From Minisyncoccota bacterium (GTDB lineage Bacteria; Patescibacteriota; Minisyncoccia; Phycocordibacterales; UBA9973), in contig JAIPHX010000001.1 of NCBI GenBank assembly GCA_021734995.1, positions 52,590 through 116,589 on the forward strand: a DNA stretch of 64,000 nt, in the 5' to 3' direction. Numbering within the stretch: position 1 is the stretch's first letter; the number at the start of each line of letters is the position of its first letter. Shown here one piece after another: positions 7,447 to 44,298 of the stretch. A program made the position numbers and the translations under genes. The notes under the pieces are model-generated. The model ran no database searches, was not told the origin of the DNA, and worked only from the letters and a program-made list of their open reading frames with translations.

Positions 7447-7570
7447 TTAATGATTTGTCGGTGGTGGTGTTCTTCGCTCGTTGTTGTCATAGTACCCACC
7501 ATTGTTTACATGATTTGTTGGTGGAGGCATTCCATGCCCGTTGTTGTTTTCATAGTACCCACCGTTGTTC
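7447..7570. repeat. About 60-bp tandem duplication encoding the repeated cytoplasmic tail of the surface protein
   Basis: atttgt[c/t]ggtgg...catagtacccacc[a/g]ttgtt[t/c]acatg occurs twice in tandem. Confidence 0.5.
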
Positions 7571-17695: not shown

Positions 17696-19423
17696 ATGGA
17701 TACATCAAAAACACCAAAATTTGATAATGCTATAGATAAAATATTAGCAAATCTAAAACCTCACAAAAGAATATGTGAGCAATGTGAAGTAGAGTTTGAA
17801 TTTTTGGATACGGATATTGAATTTTTTAATAAATTTAAGGTTCCACCACCTAGGATGTGTTCAGATTGTCGCAGGCAAAGGAGGTTGGCTTTTGTAAATT
17901 ACACAACTCTTTTTAAGAGAATTTGTAATACACCAACGCATGATGAAAAGATAATTTCTTCAATTCCAGAAGGAACAGAATTTCCAGTTTATGATTTTGA
18001 TTCATATTGGCACGGTGACAGAGATTGGAAAGAATATGGAAAAGATTTTGATTTTAATAAATCTTTTATAAAGCAGTTTAAGGAATTATTTATTAAATCG
18101 CCTCAACCTGCACTTACTCGCAACCCAGAGAGTATTGATAGTGATTATACTTCATATGGGGTTCAACTAAAAAATTGTTATTATGTTTTTGGCGGAATGA
18201 ATGCTGAAAATATTATGTACACTGTCTGGCCTATGATGGTTAAAGATTCTGCAGATTTTCTTATTGCAGTAAACACGGATTTATCGTACGAAGGTGTATA
18301 TCCAGAAAATTGTTATAACTGTAATTTTGTATATTTTTCAAGAGATTGCGTAGATTGTAATTTTACTTTCGATTGCAGGAATTGTAACGACTGCTTTGCT
18401 TGTGTAAATTTGAGAAGTAAAAAATATTGCATTTGGAATAAACAATATTCTAAGGAGGATTACTTTAAAGAAATATCAAAAATTGATTTGGGAGATCAAG
18501 AAACATTAAAAAAATATAAATTAGATTTTATGAGTTTTGTAAAAAAATTACCAGTGAGAGCTACTCGAAATGAACATTCGGAAAATGTATCAGGTAATTA
18601 TCTAATAAATACAAACAATTGTTACAGTACAATGTGGGCAATGAATTCTGAAAATTTAAGTTTTACTGATTTTGTATTAAGATTAAAAGATTCATATGAT
18701 TGTACTGTTTCAGCTGTTGCTGAGAAATTATACAGTACATCAGGTGTCGGGAATAATTGTTTTGATGTAAGGTTTTCTACTTTTGGGAGAGATGTTCGTG
18801 AGTGTGAATATATAATGAATTGTAAAAATTGCACAAATTGTTTTGCTTGCATTGGTCTTGTTAATGCTAAGTTTTGTGTTTTTAATAAACAATATGAAGA
18901 AAGTGAATATTGGAATTTAGTTGATGAAATAAAAACAAAAATGTTAGAAGATAATGAATATGGAGAATTTTTTCCAATGTCAGTAAGCCCCTTCCCTTAT
19001 AATGCCTCTCTTGCAAATATTATTTATCCATCATCTAAAGAAAAAATTCTTAAGTTAAATGGTTGGTGGCATGATGAAGAGTCCGATTTTCCAAAAGGAA
19101 TAGAATTTACAAAAGTTAAAGATATTGAACAAAATATAAAAGATATTTCGGATGTTATTTTAAATAAAGGAATAATAAGCGATAATAATGGTAAACCGTT
19201 TAGAATAACAGAAAGAGAACTTGATTTTTATAAACGTAAGCAAATATCAATTCCAAATATTACTCCATACGAACGTATAATAAATCGCTTTTCTTTTGTT
19301 AATAACTTTAATCTTTTTAAAGATCAGTGTTTCAAATGTAAAACAGAGATTTTGAGTAGCTACGATACAAAAAATGGATTTAAGCCATACTGTGAAAAAT
19401 GTTATCAGCAAGAAGTTTATTAA
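17696..19423 (+). CDS. Cysteine-rich protein family member 1 (575 aa) with N- and C-terminal CxxC...CxxCR zinc-ribbon modules
   Basis: N-terminal CEQCEVEF...FFNKFKVPPPRMCSDCRRQRR; central DCVDCNFTFDCRNCNDCFACVNL...NKQYSKEDY and CKNCTNCFACIGL...NKQYEESEY repeats; C-terminal FYKRKQISIPN...CFKCK...KPYCEKCYQQEVY. Paralogous to the CDS at 32838, 36809 and 38620. Confidence 0.7.
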   Translation: MDTSKTPKFDNAIDKILANLKPHKRICEQCEVEFEFLDTDIEFFNKFKVPPPRMCSDCRRQRRLAFVNYTTLFKRICNTPTHDEKIISSIPEGTEFPVYDFDSYWHGDRDWKEYGKDFDFNKSFIKQFKELFIKSPQPALTRNPESIDSDYTSYGVQLKNCYYVFGGMNAENIMYTVWPMMVKDSADFLIAVNTDLSYEGVYPENCYNCNFVYFSRDCVDCNFTFDCRNCNDCFACVNLRSKKYCIWNKQYSKEDYFKEISKIDLGDQETLKKYKLDFMSFVKKLPVRATRNEHSENVSGNYLINTNNCYSTMWAMNSENLSFTDFVLRLKDSYDCTVSAVAEKLYSTSGVGNNCFDVRFSTFGRDVRECEYIMNCKNCTNCFACIGLVNAKFCVFNKQYEESEYWNLVDEIKTKMLEDNEYGEFFPMSVSPFPYNASLANIIYPSSKEKILKLNGWWHDEESDFPKGIEFTKVKDIEQNIKDISDVILNKGIISDNNGKPFRITERELDFYKRKQISIPNITPYERIINRFSFVNNFNLFKDQCFKCKTEILSSYDTKNGFKPYCEKCYQQEVY

Positions 19424-31564: not shown

Positions 31565-32707
31565 ATGAAAATTCCAATAGTGGATGAAAATGATAATATT
31601 ATAGAATATAGAGAAAGAGATAATCGTGATTTAAATGCTATTTATCGTGTTTCTTCTTTGTGGATTACTGATACTGATGGAAATATTTTACTTGCTCGTC
31701 GTGCTTTTAATAAAAGCCATGACCCTGGTAAATGGGGTCCTGCAGTAGCTGGAACGGTTGAGGAAGGAGAAACTTATGAGCAGAATATAATAAAAGAAGC
31801 AGAAGAAGAAATAGGATTAAAGGATATCAAGCCTATTGTTGGGATTAAAAAACGTAGAAATGCTAAGTGGAATTATTTCGTTCAATATTTTCTACTAACC
31901 CTACCGGTAGGATTTAATAATTTCAAAATTCAAGAAGATGAAGTTGCCGAAATTAAATGGTTTCCTGAAGAAAAACTAAGAAAAGAATTAAAAGAAAATC
32001 CAGATGAGTTTCGAAAAGGTATTCATGAGAGAATGAATGAATCTATTAAACATGTAATAATTTTTTCTCATGGATTTGGAACTCGGAAAGACGATCGTGG
32101 ACTTTTTACTGATATTGCAGAGGGGTTTCCTGGAACAGAATCCATACTTTTTGACTATAATAGTGTTGATGAAACAGAGAATACTCTAACTGCTTGTTTA
32201 TTATCTGAGCAAGCAAGAATGTTAAATGATGTAATTGAAAAAGCATATATAGATAATCCAGAGGCAACGATAGATATTATTGGTCATTCACAGGGATGCT
32301 TGGCGGTGTCTCTTGCAAAACCACAAGGAATTCATAGAACTATTTTTGTTGCACCTTCTTTAGATACAGACATAGAGCATACAATTGAGATGTTTAAGGA
32401 GCGGGCAGGAACAGAGATAAATTTATCTGGTATATCAAGGCTGGCACGTAAAGATGGAACTGTTACGTTGGTCCCTGCTCTGTTTTGGGTAGAAAGAAAA
32501 CAATCTGATCCAATTTCTTTATATAATGAATTATCCAACAAAACTGATTTAATCATTATAAATGCAAAGCAAGATGAAATATTTGGCCATACAAATACTC
32601 AAGGATTAGATAAAAAAATTGAGATTATAAATATTGATGGGAACCATCAGTTTTCAGGGGAATCAAGACAAGTATTGATAGATAAAATAAAGATATTACT
32701 AGAATAG
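31565..32707 (+). CDS. Fusion protein: N-terminal Nudix hydrolase and C-terminal alpha/beta-hydrolase
   Basis: Nudix box GTVEEGETYEQNIIKEAEEEIGL; alpha/beta-hydrolase nucleophile elbow IIGHSQGCLAV, and HGFGT near the domain start. Confidence 0.65.
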   Translation: MKIPIVDENDNIIEYRERDNRDLNAIYRVSSLWITDTDGNILLARRAFNKSHDPGKWGPAVAGTVEEGETYEQNIIKEAEEEIGLKDIKPIVGIKKRRNAKWNYFVQYFLLTLPVGFNNFKIQEDEVAEIKWFPEEKLRKELKENPDEFRKGIHERMNESIKHVIIFSHGFGTRKDDRGLFTDIAEGFPGTESILFDYNSVDETENTLTACLLSEQARMLNDVIEKAYIDNPEATIDIIGHSQGCLAVSLAKPQGIHRTIFVAPSLDTDIEHTIEMFKERAGTEINLSGISRLARKDGTVTLVPALFWVERKQSDPISLYNELSNKTDLIIINAKQDEIFGHTNTQGLDKKIEIINIDGNHQFSGESRQVLIDKIKILLE

Positions 32708-32837
32708 TGTTTCATGGCCGAGGTGGCTTGAACTGCGGTAGTGACCCCCATATTTCTATTCTTGCCAATCTGTACAGTTTATGTAGAGGGTTTTTATAGG
32801 CTACTAGAAATCAAATTTTTTATGATAAAATAAATAA

Positions 32838-34565
32838 ATGACTCCAGAAATAAAGAACTGCCAGAACTGCAAAAAAGACTTCACTATTGAGATAGATGAC
32901 TTTTCTTTTTATGAAAAAATAAAGGTTCCGCCTCCGACTTGGTGTTCAACATGTAGATTTCTCCGAAGAGCAGTTTTTAGAAATGAAAGAAAACTTTTTC
33001 GAACTATTAATGCAGTTACAGAGAAACCAACACTCTCTATTTACCCTGCAGAATCTGGATACACCATATATGATGATAATTATTGGGGAAGTGATAATTG
33101 GGACCCTTTTTCTTATGGAAGAGATTTTGACCGTTCGAGACCTTTCTTAGCTCAACTTTTTGAGCTGAATCAAGAAATTCCACACCCTCGCGTTAGTACA
33201 CTTAATATGATTAGAAGTGAATACTCTGCAAACGCTGTTGATCTTAAGGATTGTTATTTGCTTTTTAATTCTAATAACTCAGAAAATTCAGCATATGGTA
33301 ATGGTATAGATTTTTCGAACAATTGCTTTGATACTTCTCACATTAAACAATCAGAAAGATGTTATGAATCTTTCTGGCTTACCAAATGTTACGAAACGTT
33401 CTTTTCTTCTCAGTGTGAGAATTGTGTATCAGTTTGGTTTTCTAAAAATTGTCAAGGTTGTACAAATTGCTTTGGGTGTGTAAATTTAGTGAATCAATCA
33501 TATTGTTATTTTAATAAACAACTATCGAAGGAAGAATATTTATTAACAATAAAAGAATTGGAGCTTGAGAAATTCTCTAATTTAGAAAAGATTCAAAAAG
33601 AAAGTAGGGAATTCTGGCTTAAATTTCCAGTGAAGTATTTTACTGGAATGAAAAACGTTTTTTCTTCAGGAGAATATATTACTCATTCAAAAAACGTTCG
33701 TAAAAGTTTTCTTGTGAGAGAGGGTGAAGATTTAAAGTATGTGCAGTACTCCCAAGTGGGTTATTTGCGTGATGTGATGGATGTGACTGTTGTTGCAAAA
33801 AGTGAAATTGTTTATGAATCAAGTATCTCTGGCTGGGACTCAGCTCAGCTTAAGTTTTGTTGGGAATGTTGGGATGGAGGAATTGATTTCGAGTACAGTA
33901 TGTTTTGTGGGAGAGGAGCAAGTCATATTTTTGGTTCAGTTGCCATAAGTAGTGGAGAGTATATTATTCTCAATAAACGTTACTCTAAAGAAAATTTTTT
34001 TAAACTTCGAGATGAAATAAAGCAACACATGAATGAAATGCCATATATCGATAATCAGGGTCGTGTATATAAGTATGGAGAATTTTTTCCACCCGAGTTT
34101 AGTCCTTTTGCTTATAATGACACTATAGCCCCCGAGCACTTTCCTTTTTCAAAAGAAGAAATATTATCTTTTGGCGCAAAATGGTACGAAGTTCCAAAAG
34201 GAGAGTATGGAACAACCATAGGTGCGAGAGAGTTACCCGATAATATTGATGATGTAAAATCTGATCTTCTTGAAGAAGTTATATCTTGTGCTGACTGCAA
34301 AAGAGGATATAGAATAATTTCTTTTGAACTAGATTTTTTAAAAAATCACAAAATTCCCATACCTAGATATTGTGTTGATTGTCGTTACAAAAAAAGAATT
34401 TCTCAGAGAAACAAAAATATTTTTTATAATAGATCATGCATGTGTACAAATGAAGAGCATTTTCATGGAGTAAATAAGTGTCAAATTGAATTTGAAACGA
34501 GTTACTCCCCAGAAAGACCCGAGATAGTGTATTGTGAATCTTGCTATCAGAAGGAGGTTTATTGA
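32838..34565 (+). CDS. Cysteine-rich protein family member 2 (575 aa)
   Basis: N-terminal CQNCKKDFTIEIDDFSFYEKIKVPPPTWCSTCRFLRRAVFRNER; central CENCVSVWFSKNCQGCTNCFGCVNL; YGEFFPPEFSPFAYNDTIAPEHFP; C-terminal CADCKRGY...FLKNHKIPIPRYCVDCRYKKR...PEIVYCESCYQKEVY. Confidence 0.7.
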   Translation: MTPEIKNCQNCKKDFTIEIDDFSFYEKIKVPPPTWCSTCRFLRRAVFRNERKLFRTINAVTEKPTLSIYPAESGYTIYDDNYWGSDNWDPFSYGRDFDRSRPFLAQLFELNQEIPHPRVSTLNMIRSEYSANAVDLKDCYLLFNSNNSENSAYGNGIDFSNNCFDTSHIKQSERCYESFWLTKCYETFFSSQCENCVSVWFSKNCQGCTNCFGCVNLVNQSYCYFNKQLSKEEYLLTIKELELEKFSNLEKIQKESREFWLKFPVKYFTGMKNVFSSGEYITHSKNVRKSFLVREGEDLKYVQYSQVGYLRDVMDVTVVAKSEIVYESSISGWDSAQLKFCWECWDGGIDFEYSMFCGRGASHIFGSVAISSGEYIILNKRYSKENFFKLRDEIKQHMNEMPYIDNQGRVYKYGEFFPPEFSPFAYNDTIAPEHFPFSKEEILSFGAKWYEVPKGEYGTTIGARELPDNIDDVKSDLLEEVISCADCKRGYRIISFELDFLKNHKIPIPRYCVDCRYKKRISQRNKNIFYNRSCMCTNEEHFHGVNKCQIEFETSYSPERPEIVYCESCYQKEVY

Positions 34566-34646
34566 TTACTCAGCCATCTTTCTTGTCGTATTTTATAATA
34601 ACATGCTGACATAGTCAGCTGGTTTTGTTTGTGATATTATCATCTT

Positions 34647-35264
34647 ATGAAAAAGAACATAATTATTGCTATTTTGGTAGTTTTATTAGTTGTTTCGTTG
34701 AGCTTTGTGTTTTTTGGAAGTAAATCTTCAAAAGATGAGATTAGTGATTTGTCGCAATTAAATTATCAATTTACCGACAAAGACACAAGAGAGAATAGTG
34801 CTCAAAATAGTATGGAGACATCTAGTGCTGTGGGTAAGGTTACTCCAAAATATGAAGATACAGCAGAATCAAAAATTGTAAGCGAAAAATCTTCTGCCTA
34901 TTTGACAAGTTTTGAACAAAGAAGTGATGGATATTATTATTTAAGTTTTGATTATGTTAGTTTTGGTCAAGATCAAGCAGGTGCTGTGACTCCTGTAAAT
35001 AATAATTCTAAAACAAGAACATTTAGAGCATCTAAAAATTTGAAAGTTGGATACGATTTTACAAATGAATTTAATGGGAATAAATTTTATACAATTTCTC
35101 AATATCTACCTCTTTTGACAAAGAAAGGTAACTTTTTGTGGAATCCAACTATCCAAGAAGATTCTTCTTTCCTGCATAACGGGCTTTATCAGATTAAAAT
35201 TGAAAAAGGGGAAGTTGTACAAATGTATGAAGGAGGAGATTTTTCTAAACCTCAAGGTCTTTAG
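34647..35264 (+). CDS. Hypothetical membrane-anchored extracytoplasmic protein (205 aa)
   Basis: N-terminal TM/signal anchor (IIIAILVVLLVVSLSFVFFG); no motifs. Confidence 0.45.
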   Translation: MKKNIIIAILVVLLVVSLSFVFFGSKSSKDEISDLSQLNYQFTDKDTRENSAQNSMETSSAVGKVTPKYEDTAESKIVSEKSSAYLTSFEQRSDGYYYLSFDYVSFGQDQAGAVTPVNNNSKTRTFRASKNLKVGYDFTNEFNGNKFYTISQYLPLLTKKGNFLWNPTIQEDSSFLHNGLYQIKIEKGEVVQMYEGGDFSKPQGL

Positions 35265-35326
35265 ATGTTGGTTGGAGACTTCTTTATTGACTTAAGCATA
35301 TTCTATTTTTTTGATATAATACACAT

Positions 35327-36787
35327 ATGACAGGACAAGAGGGCTTACCAATTAAAATTAAAGTACCAGAGGCTAATTTGCCTAACGTAGAGGGGTTAAA
35401 GGCTGAAGGGTTATCAAAACCCAAGCTAGATGTTCCTGGCATTATTCAAGCAAATGATGCAAAAATTGCAGAGTTAGGTGCTGTAGCAAAGACTACTGGG
35501 GAAAAAATAGAAGGGCTAAGAGCTCAATTGGGGCTAGATCCAAATTCAAATCCAAACCTAGAAGTTCCACCTAGTATCGCTTACATACAAGAAAAAAGAA
35601 GAGAATTAGAAGAAAAAAATAAAAAGCTGTTGGCTGGATCTCCTAATCAGCAAGGGGTAGAACAAGGGGTAGCAGAACAAGGGATAACAGAAGCGGGTCA
35701 AGCGGGGGAAAAAGGAATGGGAGAAGTTCCTGCAGGAAAACCACGCGAAGATTTACCTGAAAATCCTGAAAACTCTGAAAATGCCCAAAAGCCAGAAGCT
35801 CCAGAAGAAGCCCCTAAGCAAGAGCCGTCACAAGATCAAGAAAAAAATAAAAATCCTGAAGAAAAAGAAGATGAAATATCAAAAGAGGTAATAGAAAGAT
35901 TGTCTGCAGTAATGCAAGCAAAAAAAGCACTGGAAGCAAGGGTGGCAGGACTCAAAGACTCACCAGCTTTTAAAGCCTTTGAAGCAAAAAACAAAGACTT
36001 AGATGAAAAAAGAAAAAAACTAGAAGGTCTAAAGAATACTATAAACAATGGAGGAGGAGGAAGCGGGGGAGGAGTTACTTCATTAGAGGGCTCAATATCA
36101 TTTAGTGGTGCTGTCGATTCAACATCAGGGCAAGAGGATTTACAAAATGGCGAGGCTTCTCCTGAGAAAAGTGCAGTTGATTTAGAACAAGAAGTAGAAA
36201 ATTTAATAAAGAGAACTGAACTTGAAGTTTTAAAATTAGAAAAAGAAGAGATGGAATTTGGGGAAGATGGTTTGCAGATAAAGGCAAAAGAAATGGATCT
36301 TGAAGAAAAAGCTATTGAAACTGAAACAGAAATATGGAGTGCTGGTGGTATGAACCAAGAAACTTTCAACAAAACGTTGCAAAATATCAATAATTCTGAA
36401 TTTGACCAAAGTACCATTAAAAATCGAGACACCTTTGTAAGATTTATGTTGGCTGAAAACGAAATGGAATCTTTTAAACAAGAAAATAATGATTATTATC
36501 AAAGCTTGGAAGTAAAGCAAACAGAAATAGAATCAAAAGAATCTGAGTTGGAAGGAGTAGAATATCCAAATGAAAATAAAATTATAGGGATTTTAGCAGA
36601 GCATGCTATTGAAAAAGAAGAAGGAGAAGAAGGACCAAAAAATCTTGATGGTGAAAAAATAGCTGAGACAGCTGGAGCAGAAAAACCTCCTTCCGATAAT
36701 GGGATAGAAACAAGCGACCCCGCTCAGAATATGGATATTCCTATTGTTGCTGGGGGTGAAAAAAATCCTGGTGAAGTTTATAAATAA
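35327..36787 (+). CDS. Hypothetical acidic, low-complexity/coiled-coil protein (486 aa)
   Basis: Glu/Lys/Pro-rich, PE(N/A)PE repeats, a Gly stretch NGGGGSGGGV, and no TM segment. Confidence 0.45.
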   Translation: MTGQEGLPIKIKVPEANLPNVEGLKAEGLSKPKLDVPGIIQANDAKIAELGAVAKTTGEKIEGLRAQLGLDPNSNPNLEVPPSIAYIQEKRRELEEKNKKLLAGSPNQQGVEQGVAEQGITEAGQAGEKGMGEVPAGKPREDLPENPENSENAQKPEAPEEAPKQEPSQDQEKNKNPEEKEDEISKEVIERLSAVMQAKKALEARVAGLKDSPAFKAFEAKNKDLDEKRKKLEGLKNTINNGGGGSGGGVTSLEGSISFSGAVDSTSGQEDLQNGEASPEKSAVDLEQEVENLIKRTELEVLKLEKEEMEFGEDGLQIKAKEMDLEEKAIETETEIWSAGGMNQETFNKTLQNINNSEFDQSTIKNRDTFVRFMLAENEMESFKQENNDYYQSLEVKQTEIESKESELEGVEYPNENKIIGILAEHAIEKEEGEEGPKNLDGEKIAETAGAEKPPSDNGIETSDPAQNMDIPIVAGGEKNPGEVYK

Positions 36788-36808
36788 TATAAATAAAATT
36801 TTAAACAT

Positions 36809-38509
36809 ATGAAGACAAACTGCCAGAACTGCAAAAAAGACTTCGATATTACAAAAAACGACTTGGGATTTTATGAAAAAATAAAGGTTCCGTCTCCGAC
36901 TTTTTGTCCTGAATGTAGAATGATACGAAGGATGGCTTGGAGAAACGAAAGGCATTTGCACAAAAATAAATGTGATATTTGTAAAGAAAATATAATCTCA
37001 ATATACAGCGAGGATTCCCCATATAAAGTTTTATGTGGCTCTTGTTTCCATGGAGATGCATGGAATCCTTTTGATTATGAGATGGAAATAGATTTTTCAA
37101 AACCTTTTTTACAACAGGTAAAAGAATTACAGTTAAAAGTGCCAAGACTATATTCTTTTGTTTTCCAAAATACAAATAGTGAATACACAAACGGGGCAGC
37201 TTTCAATAAAAATTGTTATCTTATTTTTGTGAGTGACTACGATGAAGATTGTGCATATTGTTACTCTACTACTAATTCCAAAAATTCCCTTGATCTTTTT
37301 AATTCTACTGAAAATGAATTGTGTTATGACTCTTCTTCTTGTGTGAAGTGTTTTGCTGTTTCTTTTTCTGAAGATTGTGCCTCTTCCCAAAATTTAATTT
37401 TTTGTAAAAATTGCAATAATTGCAGTGACTGTATTGGATGTGTAAATTTGAGAAATAAAAAGCATTGTTTGTTTAATGAGCAACTAACAGAAGAAGAATA
37501 CAAACAAAAAAAGAAAGAGTTAAATCTTGAAAATAGGGAAAGTTTGAAATCATTAGAAAAACAAGCGCGAGAAGTTTGGAGTAAATATCCATTGAAATAT
37601 ATACATGGTTTAAAAAACATAGATGTCATGGGGGATTACACAAATAATTCCAAAAACTCTAGTTTTGTTTTTGATTCAAACTCAGTGGAAGATTCTAAAT
37701 TTTTAAATTTTGGTAGTAAAATAAAAGATTCGCAAGATGCGTATGTTTTAGTGGATGGTTCAGAATTATGTAATGAGATTGTAAGTGGTATTACTTTAAG
37801 CAACGCGAAATGTAGCTATTGTGTTTGGGTTGGATTTAATATTTCATATTCTGATACTTGCGAAAATTCCAATAATTTATTTGGCTGTGTGGGAGTTAGA
37901 AAAGGAGAATATTGCATTTTGAATAAAAAGTATTCCAAAGAAGAATATGAGCAACTTGTAGAAAAAATTATAAAACATATGAATGATATGCCTTATGTAG
38001 ATGAAAAAGGGATTGTGTATAAATATGGTGAATTTTTCCCCATAGATTTAAGTCCTTTTTCTTATAACGAAACTATCGCTCAAGAATATTTTCCCTTAGA
38101 AGAAAAGGAAGCTTTAGAAAAAGGATATAGATGGATGAAGAAAAAAGAAAGAGATTATAAAATAGAGATAAAAAGCGAAGAAATTCCACAAGAGATAGAA
38201 GGTGTAGGGGAAGATATTGTAAATAAAGTAATAGAATGTGCTCACAAGGGGGATTGTAATCATCAATGCACGGAAGCTTTTAGAATAAGGAAATCCGATT
38301 TTGATTTTTATAAAAGATTAAAATTGCCATTGCCAGATTTATGTCCAAATTGTAGGCATACAAAAAGATTTAAAACTCATAATCCTCTTCAGTTTTGGGA
38401 AAGAGGGTGCATGAACAAAGGGTGTCAAAATAAATTTAAAACAACATATTCCCCAGATCGACCAGAAGTGGTGTATTGTGAATCTTGCTATCAGAAGGAG
38501 GTGTATTGA
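36809..38509 (+). CDS. Cysteine-rich protein family member 3 (566 aa)
   Basis: N-terminal CQNCKKDFDITKNDLGFYEKIKVPSPTFCPECRMIRRMAWRNER; central CKNCNNCSDCIGCVNL; YGEFFPIDLSPFSYNETIAQEYFP; C-terminal FYKRLKLPLPDLCPNCRHTKR...PEVVYCESCYQKEVY. Confidence 0.7.
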   Translation: MKTNCQNCKKDFDITKNDLGFYEKIKVPSPTFCPECRMIRRMAWRNERHLHKNKCDICKENIISIYSEDSPYKVLCGSCFHGDAWNPFDYEMEIDFSKPFLQQVKELQLKVPRLYSFVFQNTNSEYTNGAAFNKNCYLIFVSDYDEDCAYCYSTTNSKNSLDLFNSTENELCYDSSSCVKCFAVSFSEDCASSQNLIFCKNCNNCSDCIGCVNLRNKKHCLFNEQLTEEEYKQKKKELNLENRESLKSLEKQAREVWSKYPLKYIHGLKNIDVMGDYTNNSKNSSFVFDSNSVEDSKFLNFGSKIKDSQDAYVLVDGSELCNEIVSGITLSNAKCSYCVWVGFNISYSDTCENSNNLFGCVGVRKGEYCILNKKYSKEEYEQLVEKIIKHMNDMPYVDEKGIVYKYGEFFPIDLSPFSYNETIAQEYFPLEEKEALEKGYRWMKKKERDYKIEIKSEEIPQEIEGVGEDIVNKVIECAHKGDCNHQCTEAFRIRKSDFDFYKRLKLPLPDLCPNCRHTKRFKTHNPLQFWERGCMNKGCQNKFKTTYSPDRPEVVYCESCYQKEVY

Positions 38510-38619
38510 TAATTTTTTTTCGGCTGTTGTATTATTTTTTAATCTTTATGGAATTAAGAGAGGAGCTTGCTAAAACTCTTTGATTGAATTATTAAATTTA
38601 TAATGATACCATTATTTCC

Positions 38620-40281
38620 ATGGAGAAGACTTGTAAAAGATGCCTGCAGACTTTTGTAGTGGATAGCCTTGAGTTAAATTTGTCTCAAAAAATGAATATT
38701 CCTGTGACTCATTCATGCCCTGATTGTCGTTTTAAACTTAGAAACGTTTGGCGAAATGAGATGAACTTATATTCAGGAGTAAAGTGCGGGCTATGTGATA
38801 AGAGTATCATTTCTATGTATAACCCTAAACATGGGTATGTAATTTATTGTAACAGTTGTTATGAATCAGATAGTTGGGATAAAAAATCTTATTTTGTAAA
38901 TTATGATGAAAATCGTCCTTTTTTTGATCAGTTCCAAGAGCTTTTCAAAAAGACACCAAAAGCTTCTTTGTATATATCCAAAGCTTCAGGGATAAATCTA
39001 AATAGTGATTATGTAAATTATGCAGGAGGAATTAAAAATTGTTATTTTATTTTCAATGGAGGACCAGCAGAAGACTCTATGTATTCTAGAGGAGTGGTAT
39101 TTTCTAAAGATTCTTCTGATTCATATTTTGGGATGAATGTTGATAGGTGTTATGAATGTGTAAATATTTTTAATTCTTCAGGAGTATTCTGGGGGATAAA
39201 TGTTAATAATTGCTTGGATAGTATGTTTTTAATGGATTGCAGTGGATTGACTAATTGTTTTGGTTGTGTGAATTTAAGAATGAAAAGTTATTGTTGGTTT
39301 AATGAACAACTTTCCAGAAGTGAATACGAAGAAAGATTAAAGACTGTGCAAGGGAGTTATACAAAAATGCAGGCAGAATATTTAAAGTTTCAAGAGTTTG
39401 CATTAAAATTTCCAAATAGAGAAAACCACAATTTAAAAGTTCAAAATTGTCGGGGGGACTATCTGATGGAATGTAAAAATGTTGTTAATTCTTTTGAAAT
39501 TGCTTCTTCAGAAAATGTTATGTTTGCTTTTTCAGCTAAAAAACTAAAAGATTCTCTTGGGGTAGTTGGCTTTGGGTTTAATTCCGAGTCTCTTTTTGAT
39601 TGTGCTGCAGTAGGATATTCAAGCAATGTGATTGGTTCTGTTATTGTTGAAAATTCACAAAATATCTTGAATAGTTTTTCTTTGTATGGATGTAGTGATT
39701 GTATTGGTTGTGCTAGTTTAAAAAATGGTAAATTTTGTATTTTAAATAAAGAGTATAGAGAAGAAGAATATAATAAAATAAAAGAAAAGATTATCCAAGA
39801 ACTAAAAGAGAAAGAATTATATGGTTATATGATACCTTCAGAGATTTCTCCGTTTGGCTACAATGAATCTATTGTCATGGATAATGCTCCATTAAATGAA
39901 ACAGAGGTCTTGGCTTTTGGCTGTAGGTGGGAAGAAGACTTACAAAAAACAGAAGGGAAGGAAACTATTAAAACAGAAGATATCCCTGATAATATAGAGG
40001 AAGTAAATGAATCTTTTCTAAAAGAGATTTGTGTTTGCTTTGATTGTAAAAGAAATTACAAGCTAACCTCTCAGGAATTTTCTTTTTATAAAAAAATGAA
40101 GTTACCAATACCACGAAAGTGTTTTTATTGTCGACACAAAGATAGATTACAAAAAAGAGGTCCATATAAATTTTGGGACAGGGATTGTGCTAAGTGTGGT
40201 AAAAGTATCAGCACCAATTATGATTTAAATAGACCTGAGATTGTGTATTGTGAAAGTTGTTACCAAAAGGAGGTGTATTAG
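38620..40281 (+). CDS. Cysteine-rich protein family member 4 (553 aa)
   Basis: N-terminal CKRCLQTF...CPDCRFKLRNVWRNE; central DCSGLTNCFGCVNL and CSDCIGCASL; ISPFGYNESI; C-terminal CFDCKRNY...FYKKMKLPIPRKCFYCRHKDR...PEIVYCESCYQKEVY. Confidence 0.7.
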   Translation: MEKTCKRCLQTFVVDSLELNLSQKMNIPVTHSCPDCRFKLRNVWRNEMNLYSGVKCGLCDKSIISMYNPKHGYVIYCNSCYESDSWDKKSYFVNYDENRPFFDQFQELFKKTPKASLYISKASGINLNSDYVNYAGGIKNCYFIFNGGPAEDSMYSRGVVFSKDSSDSYFGMNVDRCYECVNIFNSSGVFWGINVNNCLDSMFLMDCSGLTNCFGCVNLRMKSYCWFNEQLSRSEYEERLKTVQGSYTKMQAEYLKFQEFALKFPNRENHNLKVQNCRGDYLMECKNVVNSFEIASSENVMFAFSAKKLKDSLGVVGFGFNSESLFDCAAVGYSSNVIGSVIVENSQNILNSFSLYGCSDCIGCASLKNGKFCILNKEYREEEYNKIKEKIIQELKEKELYGYMIPSEISPFGYNESIVMDNAPLNETEVLAFGCRWEEDLQKTEGKETIKTEDIPDNIEEVNESFLKEICVCFDCKRNYKLTSQEFSFYKKMKLPIPRKCFYCRHKDRLQKRGPYKFWDRDCAKCGKSISTNYDLNRPEIVYCESCYQKEVY

Positions 40282-40338
40282 ATTTTTTGAAATATACTAA
40301 CATACAAAAATTGTTAATTATAAATTAAGTAGTATACT

Positions 40339-41571
40339 TTGTCTATGAATTTAGAAAATCCAAAAAAATTACATCCTGATGGTGTTGAACAGCCTAAAAA
40401 AGTATTAATGGATCCTAAAAAAGATCCTATTGCTGGGAATATGGCAGTTGATGTTGCTGTTCAGAATATTGTTGTTGAACAGATGGGGGTTATTAGAGAT
40501 AAATTAGGGATGCCACCAATTACAGAAATACCACCATCTATACAAGACCAAGCAAATTTATTTTTGGACCAAATTAAAGATAAGGAATTTGATTATATGT
40601 TTCAAAACCCCAATGGAGAAGATACTCCTGAAGAGTATGTTACTACTTTAAAAAATGGTGTTGTTCAACAGTATTTGGATCAAAATAAAGATTTTCAAGA
40701 TTTAAAACCTTTATTGCAAAATGTATACAGGGGCAATTATGCTATTCAAGCATCTAATATTTTTTTTAATAACCCTTTAAATACTGAGAAGTTAAAAAAG
40801 ATTTTAGATTCTTTAATAAAAAATGAAGATAAAAAGTTTTCTGCTATAAAAAATGATGAGACTCTTAAATTATTAAAAAAAAGAGTGGCTAGCTCTAGTA
40901 GGGATTCAGCAGAAAAAGATGGAGTTGAATATTATTCCAAGACAAATCAAACGAGAGAGTTTTTTGCTGACGGTAGGAAAAGTGATTCATATTCTTATGT
41001 TTCAATGATGTTTGGTTTACTTAACAATTTTTCAACAACTGATTTGGGTAAGAAATATATCCATGAGAAAATTGATAATAAAACAATTTTTTTATTTGGT
41101 GGCGGTGATTCTGTTAGAGATTTATTAAATTCAGAAGAGTTTAAACCAAATAAAATACTTAATTTCGATCCTTTTTTAGAAAAAGAAGATCTCAATAAAA
41201 ATCAAAATGGTATTTATGAATCCTATCCAATATCAGCTTCAAATGAAAATATTAAAATAATGGTAGAAAAAGAAGTTATTCCGCAAGCTGATGAGGTGTG
41301 GGCTACATATTCGGTACCATTTTATTTAGATTCTGCCGAAGATATAAAAAAATTAATAAAAAATATGGCTTCAATTATACGAGAAGGAGGGAATGCTCGT
41401 ATTTCTCCGATAGCCGTTCAAAACAAAGATAAAGAAGGGGATACATTTGAAACACGAAAAAAAGCATTAATGGAGGCTATTCAAGATTTGTTAAATGACC
41501 CTAAATTTAATGTGGTTGTTTTCGGTGACACTATTAAGATTCATAAAATTAAAAAAGAAGTTTCTTCTTAA
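40339..41571 (+). CDS. Hypothetical protein (410 aa)
   Basis: Long ORF co-directional with the Cys-rich cluster; no recognisable motifs; hydrophilic. Confidence 0.45.
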   Translation: MSMNLENPKKLHPDGVEQPKKVLMDPKKDPIAGNMAVDVAVQNIVVEQMGVIRDKLGMPPITEIPPSIQDQANLFLDQIKDKEFDYMFQNPNGEDTPEEYVTTLKNGVVQQYLDQNKDFQDLKPLLQNVYRGNYAIQASNIFFNNPLNTEKLKKILDSLIKNEDKKFSAIKNDETLKLLKKRVASSSRDSAEKDGVEYYSKTNQTREFFADGRKSDSYSYVSMMFGLLNNFSTTDLGKKYIHEKIDNKTIFLFGGGDSVRDLLNSEEFKPNKILNFDPFLEKEDLNKNQNGIYESYPISASNENIKIMVEKEVIPQADEVWATYSVPFYLDSAEDIKKLIKNMASIIREGGNARISPIAVQNKDKEGDTFETRKKALMEAIQDLLNDPKFNVVVFGDTIKIHKIKKEVSS

Positions 41572-41650: not shown

Positions 41651-43144
41651 CTACCCCAAACTCTTCCTTAAAAGTGCAGCTTCTAGAATCTCTTTAGATG
41701 GGTTTTGATTTTTTTTGATTTTAGCTAGAATCTTTCCAGATAGTTTGGAGTGTTGTATTTCTTCTTTTGTTTTTGGTCCAAACTTGAATCCTGTATATCT
41801 TTCTAAAGATTCTATCTCTTCCAATAACCCTAAAAGTCCCAATTCTTTGATACTTTCTTTTCGTAAAAATCTTCCAGCTCTTTCTAGGTTTTCATTTAGA
41901 TTTTTGTAAAGATTTTTCACAACATCAATCTTGCCATTTTTTAAACATTCTTCTATTCCTTTACCTGTCCCTAAAAATTCTGGGGGGATACCAATAGAAT
42001 AACAGCTTGCAGTAAAACCGATAGCTCTAGGCAATTTGTTTTTCCCTACTTGTCTTGAATATCCAAAAAGACCGATATGTTGCATTCTTTCACGACGCTT
42101 TGGTATGTATTTGCTAACCCTTTGAATTAAAGGGACAAGTTCTTCCACTTTTCTTCTGTATGGTTTTTCAAAGAAGGAGATAACTTTTTTTATCTCTGGT
42201 AACATTTTGTCAGGGAAGATTTCTGTCTTAGTAGTTGCTATCTCTTTGATTATTTCTTGTACCGCTTTTTTAACCTTACTATTGTTGTGGTCATAGCGGA
42301 AAGAAGATTGAATCACTAAAGTTTTCATCCCAGCAAATTCTCTAACGAAGTCCAAGCTAGTGTCAGGGGTAAGTCCACCTCGGAAGGGTAGGGAACCAGG
42401 GGCAATGATAGGGAATGTTGGTATTTTTGTTTTTTTAGTGAATTTTGCATATTCAGATAATGCCCATTTGATTGCAAGAGTGGTGGGCACTATCCCTGAG
42501 TTCATACTAGGATCTGATCTTGCACAAAAAGGTCTTAGGTATTCAGGAGAATGTTTGAATTCTTTTTTATACATTTCTAAATATTGGTTCAAAATGTTAC
42601 CTGATTTTAGAAGGGTGTCCACTCTTTCAAAAAGTGGGATGATTTCAATAGGTTCTTCTTTGTGTTCTGTTTTACCAAAAGAAGTATTTACTACTTTTGC
42701 AAATTTCTTGAATCCTTTTTGTAATTTAAAGATTTCTCCCGCGGTCTCTGTCATAGGTAAAATAATTTCAAATACAGGATTATGAGAAATACTACCTGTG
42801 TCTTTTAATTCTCTGGCAGATAAGATAACCATCAATGCTCTTCCTAGTCGGTATCCTGACTCTACTCTTGGATTAGGAACCCTGAAGGTTAAGAAAAGCT
42901 CTTTGCCTAAAGGTTTTTTTTGGAAAAAGATAGCCTGCTCTGTGAGCAACCTTTCCACCACAGATTCATCTGCTAGTTTGCCTTCCCAATCCCACATCAT
43001 TTCTTCTGCTCCAACATCTTTAAACATCAAGATACATTCTTTTATTTCGTCATGGGTTTTGATTAGTGCTTCGCTGTGCCAGTATGGTTTGTGTGTGTGG
43101 TCAGGGTGTTGGGAAAACATTACAGCTGGTATTTTTCTAGGCAT
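41651..43144 (-). CDS. Archaeal-type phosphoenolpyruvate carboxylase (atPEPC, about 500 aa)
   Basis: N-terminal PRKIPAVMFSQHPDH matches the atPEPC PRxMxTQHPD motif. Its length is about 500 aa, against about 900 aa for bacterial-type PEPC. Confidence 0.65.
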   Translation of the reverse strand: MPRKIPAVMFSQHPDHTHKPYWHSEALIKTHDEIKECILMFKDVGAEEMMWDWEGKLADESVVERLLTEQAIFFQKKPLGKELFLTFRVPNPRVESGYRLGRALMVILSARELKDTGSISHNPVFEIILPMTETAGEIFKLQKGFKKFAKVVNTSFGKTEHKEEPIEIIPLFERVDTLLKSGNILNQYLEMYKKEFKHSPEYLRPFCARSDPSMNSGIVPTTLAIKWALSEYAKFTKKTKIPTFPIIAPGSLPFRGGLTPDTSLDFVREFAGMKTLVIQSSFRYDHNNSKVKKAVQEIIKEIATTKTEIFPDKMLPEIKKVISFFEKPYRRKVEELVPLIQRVSKYIPKRRERMQHIGLFGYSRQVGKNKLPRAIGFTASCYSIGIPPEFLGTGKGIEECLKNGKIDVVKNLYKNLNENLERAGRFLRKESIKELGLLGLLEEIESLERYTGFKFGPKTKEEIQHSKLSGKILAKIKKNQNPSKEILEAALLRKSLG

Positions 43145-43146
43145 CT

Positions 43147-44298
43147 TTATTTTGATTTTTTTATAAATTGATTAATTTTTCGCAATCCTTTTTCTAAAGT
43201 TTTTGTTTTTACTGCATAGCTTATTCGAATATATGAAGGGGAGTAGAAAGCTTCTCCAGGAACTACAGCCACTCCTTCTTCTTCTAGCAAAGCCTCTGCC
43301 CAAGCAGTGGAAGTTTTGTATTTTTTGCCGAGCAGGTTGCTAATATTTGGGAAGATATAAAAAGCTCCTTCGGGTTTTGATATCTTTAATTTTTTAATTT
43401 TATTAAGTGCATCAAAAGCAATGTTTCTATTTTTTTCAAATTCTTTTATCATTTTTCTTATTTCAGTATCATTTCCTCGAAGAGCTTCCAAAGCACCCAT
43501 TTGAGCGATTGAGTTTACTCCTGAAGTTATCTGACTAGCTAGACTTGTGATAGATTTGATTATTGATCTTGATCCACAGGCATATCCAATGCGCCAACCT
43601 GTCATTGCGTATGATTTTGAAAAGCCATTTATAATTAAGGTGTTTTCTTTTATTTTTTCACCCAAAGATGCAATAGAAAAATGTTTTTTTTCATAAATTA
43701 TTTTCTCATAGATTTCATCAGAGATAATAAAAATGTTTTTTTCTCTAGCCAACTTGCCAATCTTTATGATTTCTTGTTCGTCTATTGTTGCTCCTGTAGG
43801 ATTACTAGGAGTATTTAAAAGAATTATTTTTGTTTTAGAGGATATCTTTTTTTGGACATCTTTTGCTTTTAATTTAAATGGTGATTTTAATTCTACAAAC
43901 ACAACCTTTGCCCCTGCCATGTGGATTTGTTCTACATAAGTACTCCAAGTGGGGGAGGCGACAATCACTTCATCTCCTTTTTTGCATAATATTTGAAAAG
44001 CTAAATACAAAATATATTTTGTGCCTGCTCCAACAAAAATCTCTTCTTTGTCATATTTTATTTTATATTCTTCAAGGAATTTTTTTGAAATTGCTTCTCT
44101 GAGTTCGGTGATTCCTGCAGTAGGGGTGTAGTGGGTAAAATGTTTTTTAATTGCTTGGATAGAAGCGTTAGATATGTTTTTGGGAGTATTGAAATATGGT
44201 TCGCCAACTGTCAGATTTATGATTTCTCTGCCTTCTGCTTGTAGTTTTTTTGCTTTTTCATCTAGTGCCAATGTCGGTGATTCTTTAGGTATTTGCAT
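43147..44298 (-). CDS. PLP-dependent class I/II aminotransferase (aspartate/aromatic aminotransferase-like)
   Basis: PLP-Lys motif region FSKSYAMTGWRIGY, SPTWSTY, NTPSNPTG. Confidence 0.8.
   Translation of the reverse strand: MQIPKESPTLALDEKAKKLQAEGREIINLTVGEPYFNTPKNISNASIQAIKKHFTHYTPTAGITELREAISKKFLEEYKIKYDKEEIFVGAGTKYILYLAFQILCKKGDEVIVASPTWSTYVEQIHMAGAKVVFVELKSPFKLKAKDVQKKISSKTKIILLNTPSNPTGATIDEQEIIKIGKLAREKNIFIISDEIYEKIIYEKKHFSIASLGEKIKENTLIINGFSKSYAMTGWRIGYACGSRSIIKSITSLASQITSGVNSIAQMGALEALRGNDTEIRKMIKEFEKNRNIAFDALNKIKKLKISKPEGAFYIFPNISNLLGKKYKTSTAWAEALLEEEGVAVVPGEAFYSPSYIRISYAVKTKTLEKGLRKINQFIKKSK

Follow-up and report, generated by a model that had tools for sequence, protein, structure and literature searches.

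We tentatively propose that a family of paralogous cysteine-rich proteins, four of them encoded in a 64,000-nucleotide stretch of a Minisyncoccota genome (contig JAIPHX010000001.1, positions 52,590 to 116,589; "the window" below), comprises zinc-stabilised cytoplasmic adaptors, or nucleic-acid binders or substrate-presenting partners, of soluble ATPases resembling type IV coupling proteins (T4CPs). A partnership of this kind is suggested because such ATPases are the most frequent immediate neighbours of the family genes and one of their subtypes bears the same zinc-knuckle domain. The four window genes are all intact open reading frames (ORFs):

32838..34565, + strand: copy A, 575 amino acids (aa), 27 Cys
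36809..38509, + strand: copy B, 566 aa, 36 Cys, with all four zinc modules; the copy that was modelled
38620..40281, + strand: copy C, 553 aa, 33 Cys, with all four zinc modules
17696..19423, + strand: copy D, 575 aa, 28 Cys, the most divergent copy

These genes are real full-length paralogues, with similarity far above chance. An earlier note on this DNA had placed four ORFs at exactly these coordinates and had called their products homologous over the full length, and both statements were borne out. A MAFFT alignment keeps the proteins collinear all the way between the first CxxC and the C-terminal residue, the other three copies showing 42%, 35% and 32% identity to copy A; pairwise identities among the four are 30-42% from end to end, beyond the termini as well as at them, and pairwise tblastn E-values lie between 1e-71 and 1e-138. 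No further copy or fragment of the family was located inside the 64-kb window using tblastn. The motifs quoted in the note are present (CxxC...FYEKIKVP.P..C..CR..RR, C..C..C..C[VI][NG]L...FN.Q.S.EEY, YGEFFP...SPF.YN and YCE.CYQ.EVY). The earlier note overlooked the internal duplication, the phage-type relatives of the cores and the recurrent link to T4CP-like ATPases. Copy D departs from two of its generalisations: a zinc module was placed within about 10 residues of the start, while copy D has a 22-residue N-terminal extension and its first CxxC begins at residue 27; and the common C-terminal ending is replaced in copy D by a variant, PYCEKCYQQEVY. The N-terminal treble clef of copy C is likewise divergent (LSQKMNIPVTHSCPDCR). 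The estimate of about 30-45 cysteines per protein was too high, the counts being 27, 36, 33 and 28 for copies A, B, C and D (4.7-6.4% of residues), and the G+C content of the window is 34%. Copy B is 100% identical to the product of locus tag K9L98_00420, a "hypothetical protein" of Candidatus Pacebacteria bacterium. No transmembrane segment or signal peptide is predicted in the window copies, since no 19-residue Kyte-Doolittle mean reaches the criterion of 1.6 (maximum 1.42); as the note had also thought probable, the proteins are predicted to be soluble and cytoplasmic.

Profile comparisons show that the whole protein is an internal duplication, with a pair of zinc modules at both ends and two homologous cores between them. 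Its plan is ZnA, ZnB, a short helical linker, core 1 with its cap, a helical hairpin, core 2 with its cap, a long helix plus the YGEFFP...SPF.YNET linker, ZnA' and ZnB'. Using hhalign, residues 6-46 align with 486-526 (ZnA with ZnA'; probability 99.1%, E = 8e-19), residues 50-82 with 529-563 (the second knuckle; probability 97.4%), and core 1 (133-238) with core 2 (281-387; probability 99.8%, E = 3e-29). In the window copies the segments are located as follows:

32838-32996, + strand: copy A, ZnA treble clef
32997-33101, + strand: copy A, degenerate second knuckle with no Cys
33237-33542, + strand: copy A, core 1 with cap
33633-34001, + strand: copy A, core 2 with cap, only 3 Cys
34002-34268, + strand: copy A, helix and YGEFFP linker
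34269-34421, + strand: copy A, ZnA'
34422-34562, + strand: copy A, ZnB'
36809-36958, + strand: copy B, ZnA
36959-37063, + strand: copy B, ZnB (C55xxC58-x17-C76xxC79)
37064-37198, + strand: copy B, linker
37199-37504, + strand: copy B, core 1 with cap
37505-37594, + strand: copy B, helical hairpin
37595-37951, + strand: copy B, core 2 with cap
37952-38218, + strand: copy B, helix and YGEFFP linker
38219-38392, + strand: copy B, ZnA'
38393-38506, + strand: copy B, ZnB'
38620-38769, + strand: copy C, ZnA
38770-38877, + strand: copy C, ZnB
39025-39330, + strand: copy C, core 1 with cap
39418-39774, + strand: copy C, core 2 with cap
39775-40017, + strand: copy C, linker
40018-40170, + strand: copy C, ZnA'
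40171-40278, + strand: copy C, ZnB'
17696-17911, + strand: copy D, ZnA
18161-18466, + strand: copy D, core 1 with cap
18557-18913, + strand: copy D, core 2 with cap
18914-19159, + strand: copy D, linker
19160-19312, + strand: copy D, ZnA' lacking Cys
19313-19420, + strand: copy D, ZnB'

An AlphaFold2 (AF2) model of copy B, built on an 84-sequence alignment, has a predicted template modelling score (pTM) of 0.85 and a mean predicted local distance difference test score (pLDDT) of 82.8. The pLDDT is ~80-98 in the zinc modules, the two caps and the linker; the N-terminal two-thirds of the cores (~120-190 and ~270-340) are coil at ~60, with isolated beta-bridges spaced roughly 12 residues apart. 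The conserved linker after core 2 (YGEFFP...SPF.YNET) is acidic. ZnA and ZnA' carry net charges of +5 and +6 (isoelectric point (pI) 9.3-9.4) and all other segments are acidic, the whole-protein pI being 5.5-6.3; the basic character that had been attributed to the zinc-binding ends is thus confirmed for two treble clefs in an otherwise acidic protein.

The ends had been described as zinc ribbons. They are better read as divergent relatives of the zf_Tbcl treble clef (PF13451), each followed by a GATA/LIM-like C-x2-C-x17-C-x2-C knuckle related to zf_Tbcl_2 (PF23477) and TIGR04272, and not as classic zinc ribbons. In a Pfam scan of the 84 alignment members, in which matches at E <= 0.1 were counted, zf_Tbcl_2 was matched in 28 and zf_Tbcl in 18 (best zf_Tbcl match, E = 2e-5). 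With the window proteins the scores are lower. The isolated ZnA modules of copies A, B and D gave 16.7, 21.7 and 22.1 bits, respectively, against zf_Tbcl (gathering cut-off 24) and that of copy C gave no match; the C-proximal modules gave 11.1 bits or no match, and the full-length proteins had no zf_Tbcl match at E < 1. The knuckles scored 16.1-18.2 bits against zf_Tbcl_2 (Pfam cut-off 27) and 13.3-16.4 bits against the CxxC-x17-CxxC model TIGR04272 (NCBIfam cut-off 36). Since these scores fall under the curated thresholds, the window modules are divergent relatives and not members of these families. The treble-clef pattern itself is present: C5/C8 with C33/C36, and C487 with C512/C515, are 92-93% conserved, and the copy B model places helices at 16-24 and 34-42 in the treble clef. 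Both the N-terminal and C-proximal modules share C-x2-C...F.I...D..FY.K..vP.P..C-x2-CR with zf_Tbcl, and phage "putative zinc-ribbon domain" proteins are the best BFVD structural matches. The known zf_Tbcl members are small one- or two-domain proteins, whereas here the module occurs twice and caps a 560-aa protein.

The knuckle has exactly the C-x2-C-x17-C-x2-C spacing of zf_Tbcl_2/TIGR04272. With its profile, matches were obtained to CRP1 in the second LIM finger (E = 4e-4) and, at E = 0.05-0.09, to GATA fingers; since both types of finger are eukaryotic, the likeness is only at the level of fold and motif. The only PDB match to ZnA was the CxxCRxxRR knuckle of bL36 (E = 0.05, not significant). 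In the 152 members, conservation of the ligand cysteines is 92-98% in ZnA, ZnA' and ZnB' and 55-78% in ZnB, the N-terminal ZnB knuckle being dispensable and present in about 55% of members; by this measure three zinc sites are near-invariant and one is facultative. The ZnB ligands are lost in copy A (no Cys) and copy D (one Cys left), and the ZnA' of copy D is without cysteines, leaving only ZnA and ZnB' intact in that copy. ZnB' is the most conserved domain of the family: in 147/152 members the protein ends exactly six residues past the last CxxC (...YCExCY[QN]xE[VI][YAVL]), and in the copy B model these residues form the helix of the last knuckle. Purified CxxC-x17-CxxC proteins of Methanosarcina mazei bind zinc, as determined by inductively coupled plasma mass spectrometry (PMC12704099). 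By analogy the modules here probably bind zinc as well, with a predicted 3-4 structural Zn per chain.

The link to ATPases emerged from the gene neighbourhoods of relatives in other genomes. The one recurrent neighbour is a P-loop VirD4/TraD-like ATPase with TrwB_AAD_bind and TraG-D_C domains (Pfam). Its match to the NCBIfam model SXT_TraD is weak (E = 3e-14; score 52.5 bits, cut-off 366), as are those to HerA models, and PADLOC mad8 is matched at E = 5e-12. None of the family-adjacent ATPases tested has a transmembrane segment. Among these soluble VirD4/TraD-like ATPases are:

L091:1-1028: soluble VirD4/TraD-like ATPase
L009:107-2266: soluble VirD4/TraD-like ATPase
L033:465-2552: soluble VirD4/TraD-like ATPase
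L036:330-2402: soluble VirD4/TraD-like ATPase, and others

In 23/80 loci a family gene has a T4CP-like gene no more than 6 kb away. A survey of 2,918 Patescibacteria genomes recorded 5,713 T4CP homologues (PMC12102498), and from roughly 2 T4CPs per genome the expected adjacency is about 3% (binomial P = 2e-15, a value which ignores the relatedness of the loci and is inflated because they are related). Seen from the other side, a family member is the immediate same-strand neighbour of 17 of the 31 such ATPase genes, the two being 4-159 bp apart. Arrays with an ATPase gene at either end occur repeatedly; in locus L091 the order is ATPase, DUF5654, five family genes, ATPase. DUF8128 and ATPase genes stand beside family genes in L092 and L093, and these three loci represent contexts of another subfamily in which the ATPase link recurs. 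DUF8128 is encoded upstream of the ATPases or, in some genomes, is fused to the ATPase N-terminus. Two ATPase subtypes can be distinguished. A DnaJ gene regularly comes next after that of about 490 aa. In the ~700-aa subtype there is a C-terminal TIGR04272/zf_Tbcl_2 domain (TIGR04272, E = 1e-13) with a long low-complexity tail behind it, and the part of the ATPase that bears this domain aligns with the family ZnB (hhalign probability 96.3%, E = 2e-9).

Perhaps, then, a rigid acidic body holds apart two basic treble clefs that grip either nucleic acid or a partner of acidic character, and the protein works with the orphan VirD4/TraD-like ATPases of this lineage, which are devoid of a membrane anchor, acting as an adaptor or substrate presenter for the ATPase motor; the ancient paralogues (five in this genome) would supply different specificities. 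Nucleic-acid binding by the basic ends is our inference from sequence. The arrangement recalls the accessory partners of T4CPs, an analogy drawing on established knowledge of the conjugative pairs TraM-TraD and TrwA-TrwB: like those partners, the family genes adjoin a VirD4/TraD-family ATPase, and the C-terminal extension of a family-adjacent ATPase carries a partner-type domain. The analogy is functional only, TraM and TrwA having no similarity to the family in sequence or fold. Nor are the present ATPases, which are soluble, linked to virB4, and there is no relaxase or oriT context. The survey cited above found only 148 of the 5,713 Patescibacteria T4CPs near virB4 and raised the possibility of exaptation (PMC12102498).

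Several observations weigh against a partnership with the ATPases. No T4CP-like ATPase is encoded in the 64-kb window, and none was found within 5-10 kb of the family genes in loci L086 and L090. Much of the adjacency consists of one synteny block (ATPase, DnaJ, family gene, membrane protein, cysteinyl-tRNA synthetase (CysRS)) conserved in related genomes, and because of this block the loci are not independent. The scores of the window zinc modules, which lie under the curated family cut-offs, also count here.

The central ~60% of the protein is, to judge from the profile and structure searches, without a solved or named relative; only the terminal modules are of recognisable zinc-finger types. 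In core 1 the cysteine positions are positively autocorrelated at lags 3, 6, 9, 12, 15 and 18, and since this period is 3 the register of the core is C-x-x. At the core cysteine positions of the 152-member alignment, Ser, Leu or Val takes the place of Cys in 10-85% of members. The run C202, C205, C208 and C211 at the end of core 1 is 82-99% conserved; its counterpart in core 2, which retains just 2-3 Cys, reads C..S..L..C. Such replacement fits buried ladder positions and argues against obligate iron-sulfur (Fe-S) ligands, and the core cysteines may thus represent buried ladder positions of a solenoid-like repeat. Of the zinc or Fe-S sites suggested in the earlier note, zinc is favoured and Fe-S disfavoured on the same grounds. 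The only fold matches to the cores, all weak, are beta-solenoids (Tenebrio antifreeze protein (TmAFP) 1ezg, ice-binding protein 3ult, LbH acyltransferases and CsgA); the 12-residue Cys-ladder coils of TmAFP may be compared with the modelled beta-bridges of similar spacing. Nothing was found in the PDB for the linker and cap sub-domains.

Each core is closed by a cap, C.DC.GC.NLRN..Y.I.N.QY.KEEY plus a helix, and the same cap motif is found in both cores and in a group of small phage-type proteins. A scan of IMG/VR returned only 5 partial matches, all confined to the core, and phage carriage of the full family was accordingly rejected. Four of the five were examined. That in L081 is a fragment of 43 aa located where a contig with phage tail genes ends, and the other three are small proteins of pure CSDCSxCSDCFG... 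repeats ending in CFGCRN...Y.ICNVQ.TKEEY, with an N-terminal helix pair and ~18-30% Cys:

L082:4962-5717: small repeat protein on a phage contig, phrog_15341 match
L083:6120-6476: small repeat protein on a phage contig, phrog_15341 match
L085:6845-7165: small repeat protein on a phage contig, phrog_15341 match

These three match phrog_15341 at E = 3e-8 to 2e-29, and a few of their relatives are annotated PF27784. Copy B matched phrog_15341 weakly (E = 1.1e-3 over residues 145-234) and copy D not at all. In hhalign the small-protein family aligns with residues 189-246 of the bacterial family (probability 98.7%, E = 2e-16), the similarity being confined to the cap region. Proteins of the phrog_15341/PF27784 type share with the family the cap (C.DCFGC.N....Y.I.N.Q.TKEEY plus helix) and the period-3 Cys register. 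They differ in being phage-borne or phage-like, 75-250 aa long, about 20-30% Cys and pure CSDCSx, without zinc-finger modules or linker, whereas in the bacterial family the repeat is degenerate, with frequent Ser, Leu or Val in place of Cys. An AF2 model of one small (Cxx)n relative has a cap at pLDDT ~87-93 and a pure repeat below 50. Long spurious ORFs arise from the repeat DNA of the small CSDCSx proteins, both in further reading frames and on the complementary strand.

Relatives of the family are numerous. A word-indexed search gave at least 7,390 at 90% clustering among the matches listed, all "hypothetical", from sources named Pace-, Nomura-, Staskawicz-, Giovannoni-, Yanofsky-, Lipton-, Brenner-, Wolfe-, Kuenenbacteria and similar. 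An exhaustive HMMER search of 1.84 billion representatives (50% identity clusters) recovered 2,297 clusters at E <= 1e-30, 3,876 at E <= 1e-10 and 5,628 at E <= 1e-3. The top 150 clusters are of 444-612 aa and nearly all match end to end, the typical length being a uniform 530-610 aa or so. At least 583 loci in one-genome-per-species contigs encode a relative, and nearly all of these are labelled Patescibacteria; many third-party (TPA) assemblies with relatives are labelled "Saccharibacteria", a label which is unconfirmed. The few loci labelled Burkholderiales or Gammaproteobacteria (L010, L045, L074) are probably mis-binned contigs of the Candidate Phyla Radiation (CPR); L010 has the same gene order (ATPase, DnaJ, family gene, CysRS) as Nomurabacteria. 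The earlier note had raised a CPR-restricted distribution, and by source name nearly all members belong to Parcubacteria/Paceibacteria lineages, the family appearing to be restricted to Paceibacteria. In 46/80 loci there are 2-7 copies within about 14 kb, often as tandem arrays. The closest relatives in other genomes are 48% identical to copy A, 55-62% to B, 55% to C and 40% to D, compared to 30-42% within the window, and since the copies are closer to members in other genomes than to each other, the paralogues are old subfamilies and not recent duplicates.

The sequences are public by the thousands, only as "hypothetical protein", and no curated family covers them, a newer Pfam release included. 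Scans of the whole proteins against Pfam and NCBIfam gave nothing significant, copies B and D had no match to PADLOC models at E <= 0.01, no PDB entry covers the whole protein, and no description of the family, zf_Tbcl or the repeat was found in the literature. The earlier note could name no known family; this stands for the whole protein, which Pfam, NCBIfam, PADLOC and the PDB leave uncovered and for which no confident profile match to a characterised family was obtained, with the qualification that its ends are related to zf_Tbcl and zf_Tbcl_2/TIGR04272. We rate the family as lying outside the known kinds, a rating that reflects an absence of knowledge and not a demonstrated new mechanism.

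Other explanations have to be set beside the ATPase partnership. One that we regard as somewhat doubtful is that the proteins are stand-alone nucleic-acid binders (transcription or translation regulators, nucleoid proteins or RNA chaperones) and that the ATPase adjacency is merely inherited gene order. This would agree with the basic treble clefs, whose CxxCR..RR knuckle is faintly like bL36, with the GATA/LIM-like second knuckle, with the array in the window that lacks an ATPase, and with the many loci near which there are only housekeeping and translation genes; one copy of this genome lies inside the S10 ribosomal operon (see below), and a core cellular role is suggested by the uniform length and the antiquity of the orthologous subfamilies. 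However, the bL36 similarity is non-significant, the ribosomal-operon placement is absent from four orthologue contexts, and the knuckle domain in the ATPase tail and the tight, repeated cassettes of ATPase and family genes are left unexplained. It is unlikely that the proteins are type IV secretion system (T4SS) effectors, recognised by the coupling-protein homologue via their invariant C-terminus and delivered to the host cell. They have no signal peptide, are multi-copy, often adjoin genes for T4CP homologues and have the fixed C-terminus described above, and T4SSs, without relaxase, are widespread in Patescibacteria (PMC12102498). Against this, the adjacent ATPases lack the N-terminal membrane anchor needed for a channel-coupled T4CP, few Patescibacteria T4CPs are near virB4, the C-terminal residues form the last-knuckle helix in the model, and a compact multi-zinc fold suits translocation poorly; nor are conservation from end to end, a fixed length and old subfamilies what is seen with fast-evolving effectors.

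The matches of the neighbouring ATPase to mad8 and, weakly, to HerA would be expected if, in a conflict system (anti-phage or other), the family served a HerA/FtsK/T4CP-type ATPase as its sensor or effector partner, a reading for which the tandem paralogue arrays could also be cited, together with a core repeat shared with small phage proteins that are possible mimics or inhibitors. We consider this improbable since the family itself has no PADLOC match and no recognisable nuclease, NADase or protease domain, is near-universal with old paralogue subfamilies, and lies in conserved core-genome synteny among housekeeping genes and not in variable islands. There is similarly little likelihood that the family is a structural scaffold, a self-associating solenoid-like protein (in principle bactofilin- or curli-like) with zinc-finger caps for head-to-tail assembly. 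The weak fold matches are all to beta-solenoids, CsgA and ice-binding proteins included, and a multi-copy, pseudo-symmetric protein with homologous modules at both ends could be so used; the pTM of 0.85 instead indicates a compact globular arrangement. The least probable explanation, very unlikely in our estimation, is an Fe-S, redox or metal-storage protein in which the CxxCxxCxxC runs are cluster ligands. The 27-36 cysteines per protein, the conservation of the run ending core 1 and the failure of AF2, which models no metal, to fold the pure (Cxx)n relatives could all be read in this way. Nevertheless, the equivalent run in core 2 is broken, a large fraction of members have Ser, Leu or Val at most other core Cys positions, whole sites are missing from copies A and D with their ORFs still intact, the Pfam and NCBIfam scans revealed no Fe-S, ferredoxin, radical-SAM or metallothionein profile, and the related knuckle type binds Zn experimentally (PMC12704099). 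The Fe-S reading was rejected on the core cysteine substitution pattern.

A bolder version of the ATPase partnership, which we hold to be rather unlikely, is that the family is the missing cytoplasmic partner of the approximately two orphan, membrane-less VirD4/TraD-type ATPases per Patescibacteria genome, the two forming a new ATPase-adaptor machine. Such a machine could handle or thread imported DNA or other polymers in nucleic-acid-scavenging cells, and at least five ancient paralogues would give it substrate specificity via an undescribed zinc-capped Cys-triplet-repeat fold. The ATPase link offers a testable handle on what the T4CP homologues far from virB4 were exapted for, the question posed by the 2025 survey. 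Paceibacteria have genomes of less than 1 Mb yet retain at least five paralogues of 1.7 kb, about 1% of the coding capacity, in subfamilies kept since before the divergence of the lineages, and a nameless family thousands strong is a concrete gap in the understanding of ultra-small symbionts. The cap and repeat held in common with small phage proteins point to a repeat fold which is uncharacterised and may depend on metal. Should the family prove to be a plain zinc-finger nucleic-acid binder, it would be worth a Pfam entry and its wider interest would be modest.

The fifth copy, which lies on an overlapping contig, is located as follows:

~64332 onward (~330 bp past the window end; L089:2590-4323): copy E, 577 aa, K9L98_00575

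Copy E is 37% identical to copy B (E = 3e-127). With it there are five copies in about 50 kb, in keeping with the large genomic investment remarked upon in the earlier note. The rplB-rpsS junction is normally strongly conserved. Here copy E is inserted between rplB (L2) and rpsS (S19) of the S10 ribosomal-protein operon, the gene order being L4, L23, L2, copy E, S19, L22, S3, L16, L29, S17. Orthologues of copy E (47-60% identity) were in a ribosomal operon in 0/4 contexts, and no other fetched family locus is near L2 or S19. A ribosome link as a family trait was rejected for this reason, and the placement of copy E is lineage-specific since it is not shared by the four orthologue contexts. In one orthologue context (L090:4392-5001) the family gene directly follows a nucleotidyltransferase/HepT-like toxin-antitoxin pair, with a one-base overlap.

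In the window the family genes have as neighbours the genes for a Nudix-fusion protein, an anchored protein of 205 aa, an acidic low-complexity protein of 486 aa and an unknown protein of 410 aa, none of the four with a counterpart beside family members in the other loci. The earlier note had linked the family to the co-directional acidic-repeat and membrane-anchored genes. This link is not conserved: none of the acidic-repeat, membrane-anchored and 410-aa neighbours clusters with neighbours in ~85 related loci, and a conserved operon with these three genes was rejected. Two sites discovered by consensus scan only are:

34605..34619, + strand: terminator-like hairpin directly after copy A
34612-34640: promoter-like site overlapping the hairpin, ahead of the next gene

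Promoter-like sites, again consensus matches only, precede 34647 and 38620. The hairpin after copy A argues weakly against a single operon spanning 31565..41571.

Among the remaining genes, that at 35327..36787 (+) encodes the 486-aa acidic protein, rich in Glu, Lys and Gly, between copies A and B; it has no family match, and the long antisense ORFs lying over it are probably compositional artefacts. In the product of 31565..32707 (+) a Nudix hydrolase domain occupies residues 31-148; the C-terminal half fused to it (~200 aa) has no Pfam match and resembles an alpha/beta-hydrolase by sequence motifs. A 1,313-aa ORF at 7447..11388 (-), whose counterpart in L088 has only weak Pfam matches (Pur_ac_phosph_N, CLIPPER), may specify a large surface protein. 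The gene at 41651..43144 (-) of this Paceibacteria genome matches Pfam PEPcase_2 (PF14010; E = 3e-129) over the full length and adjoins a class I/II aminotransferase gene (43147..44298).

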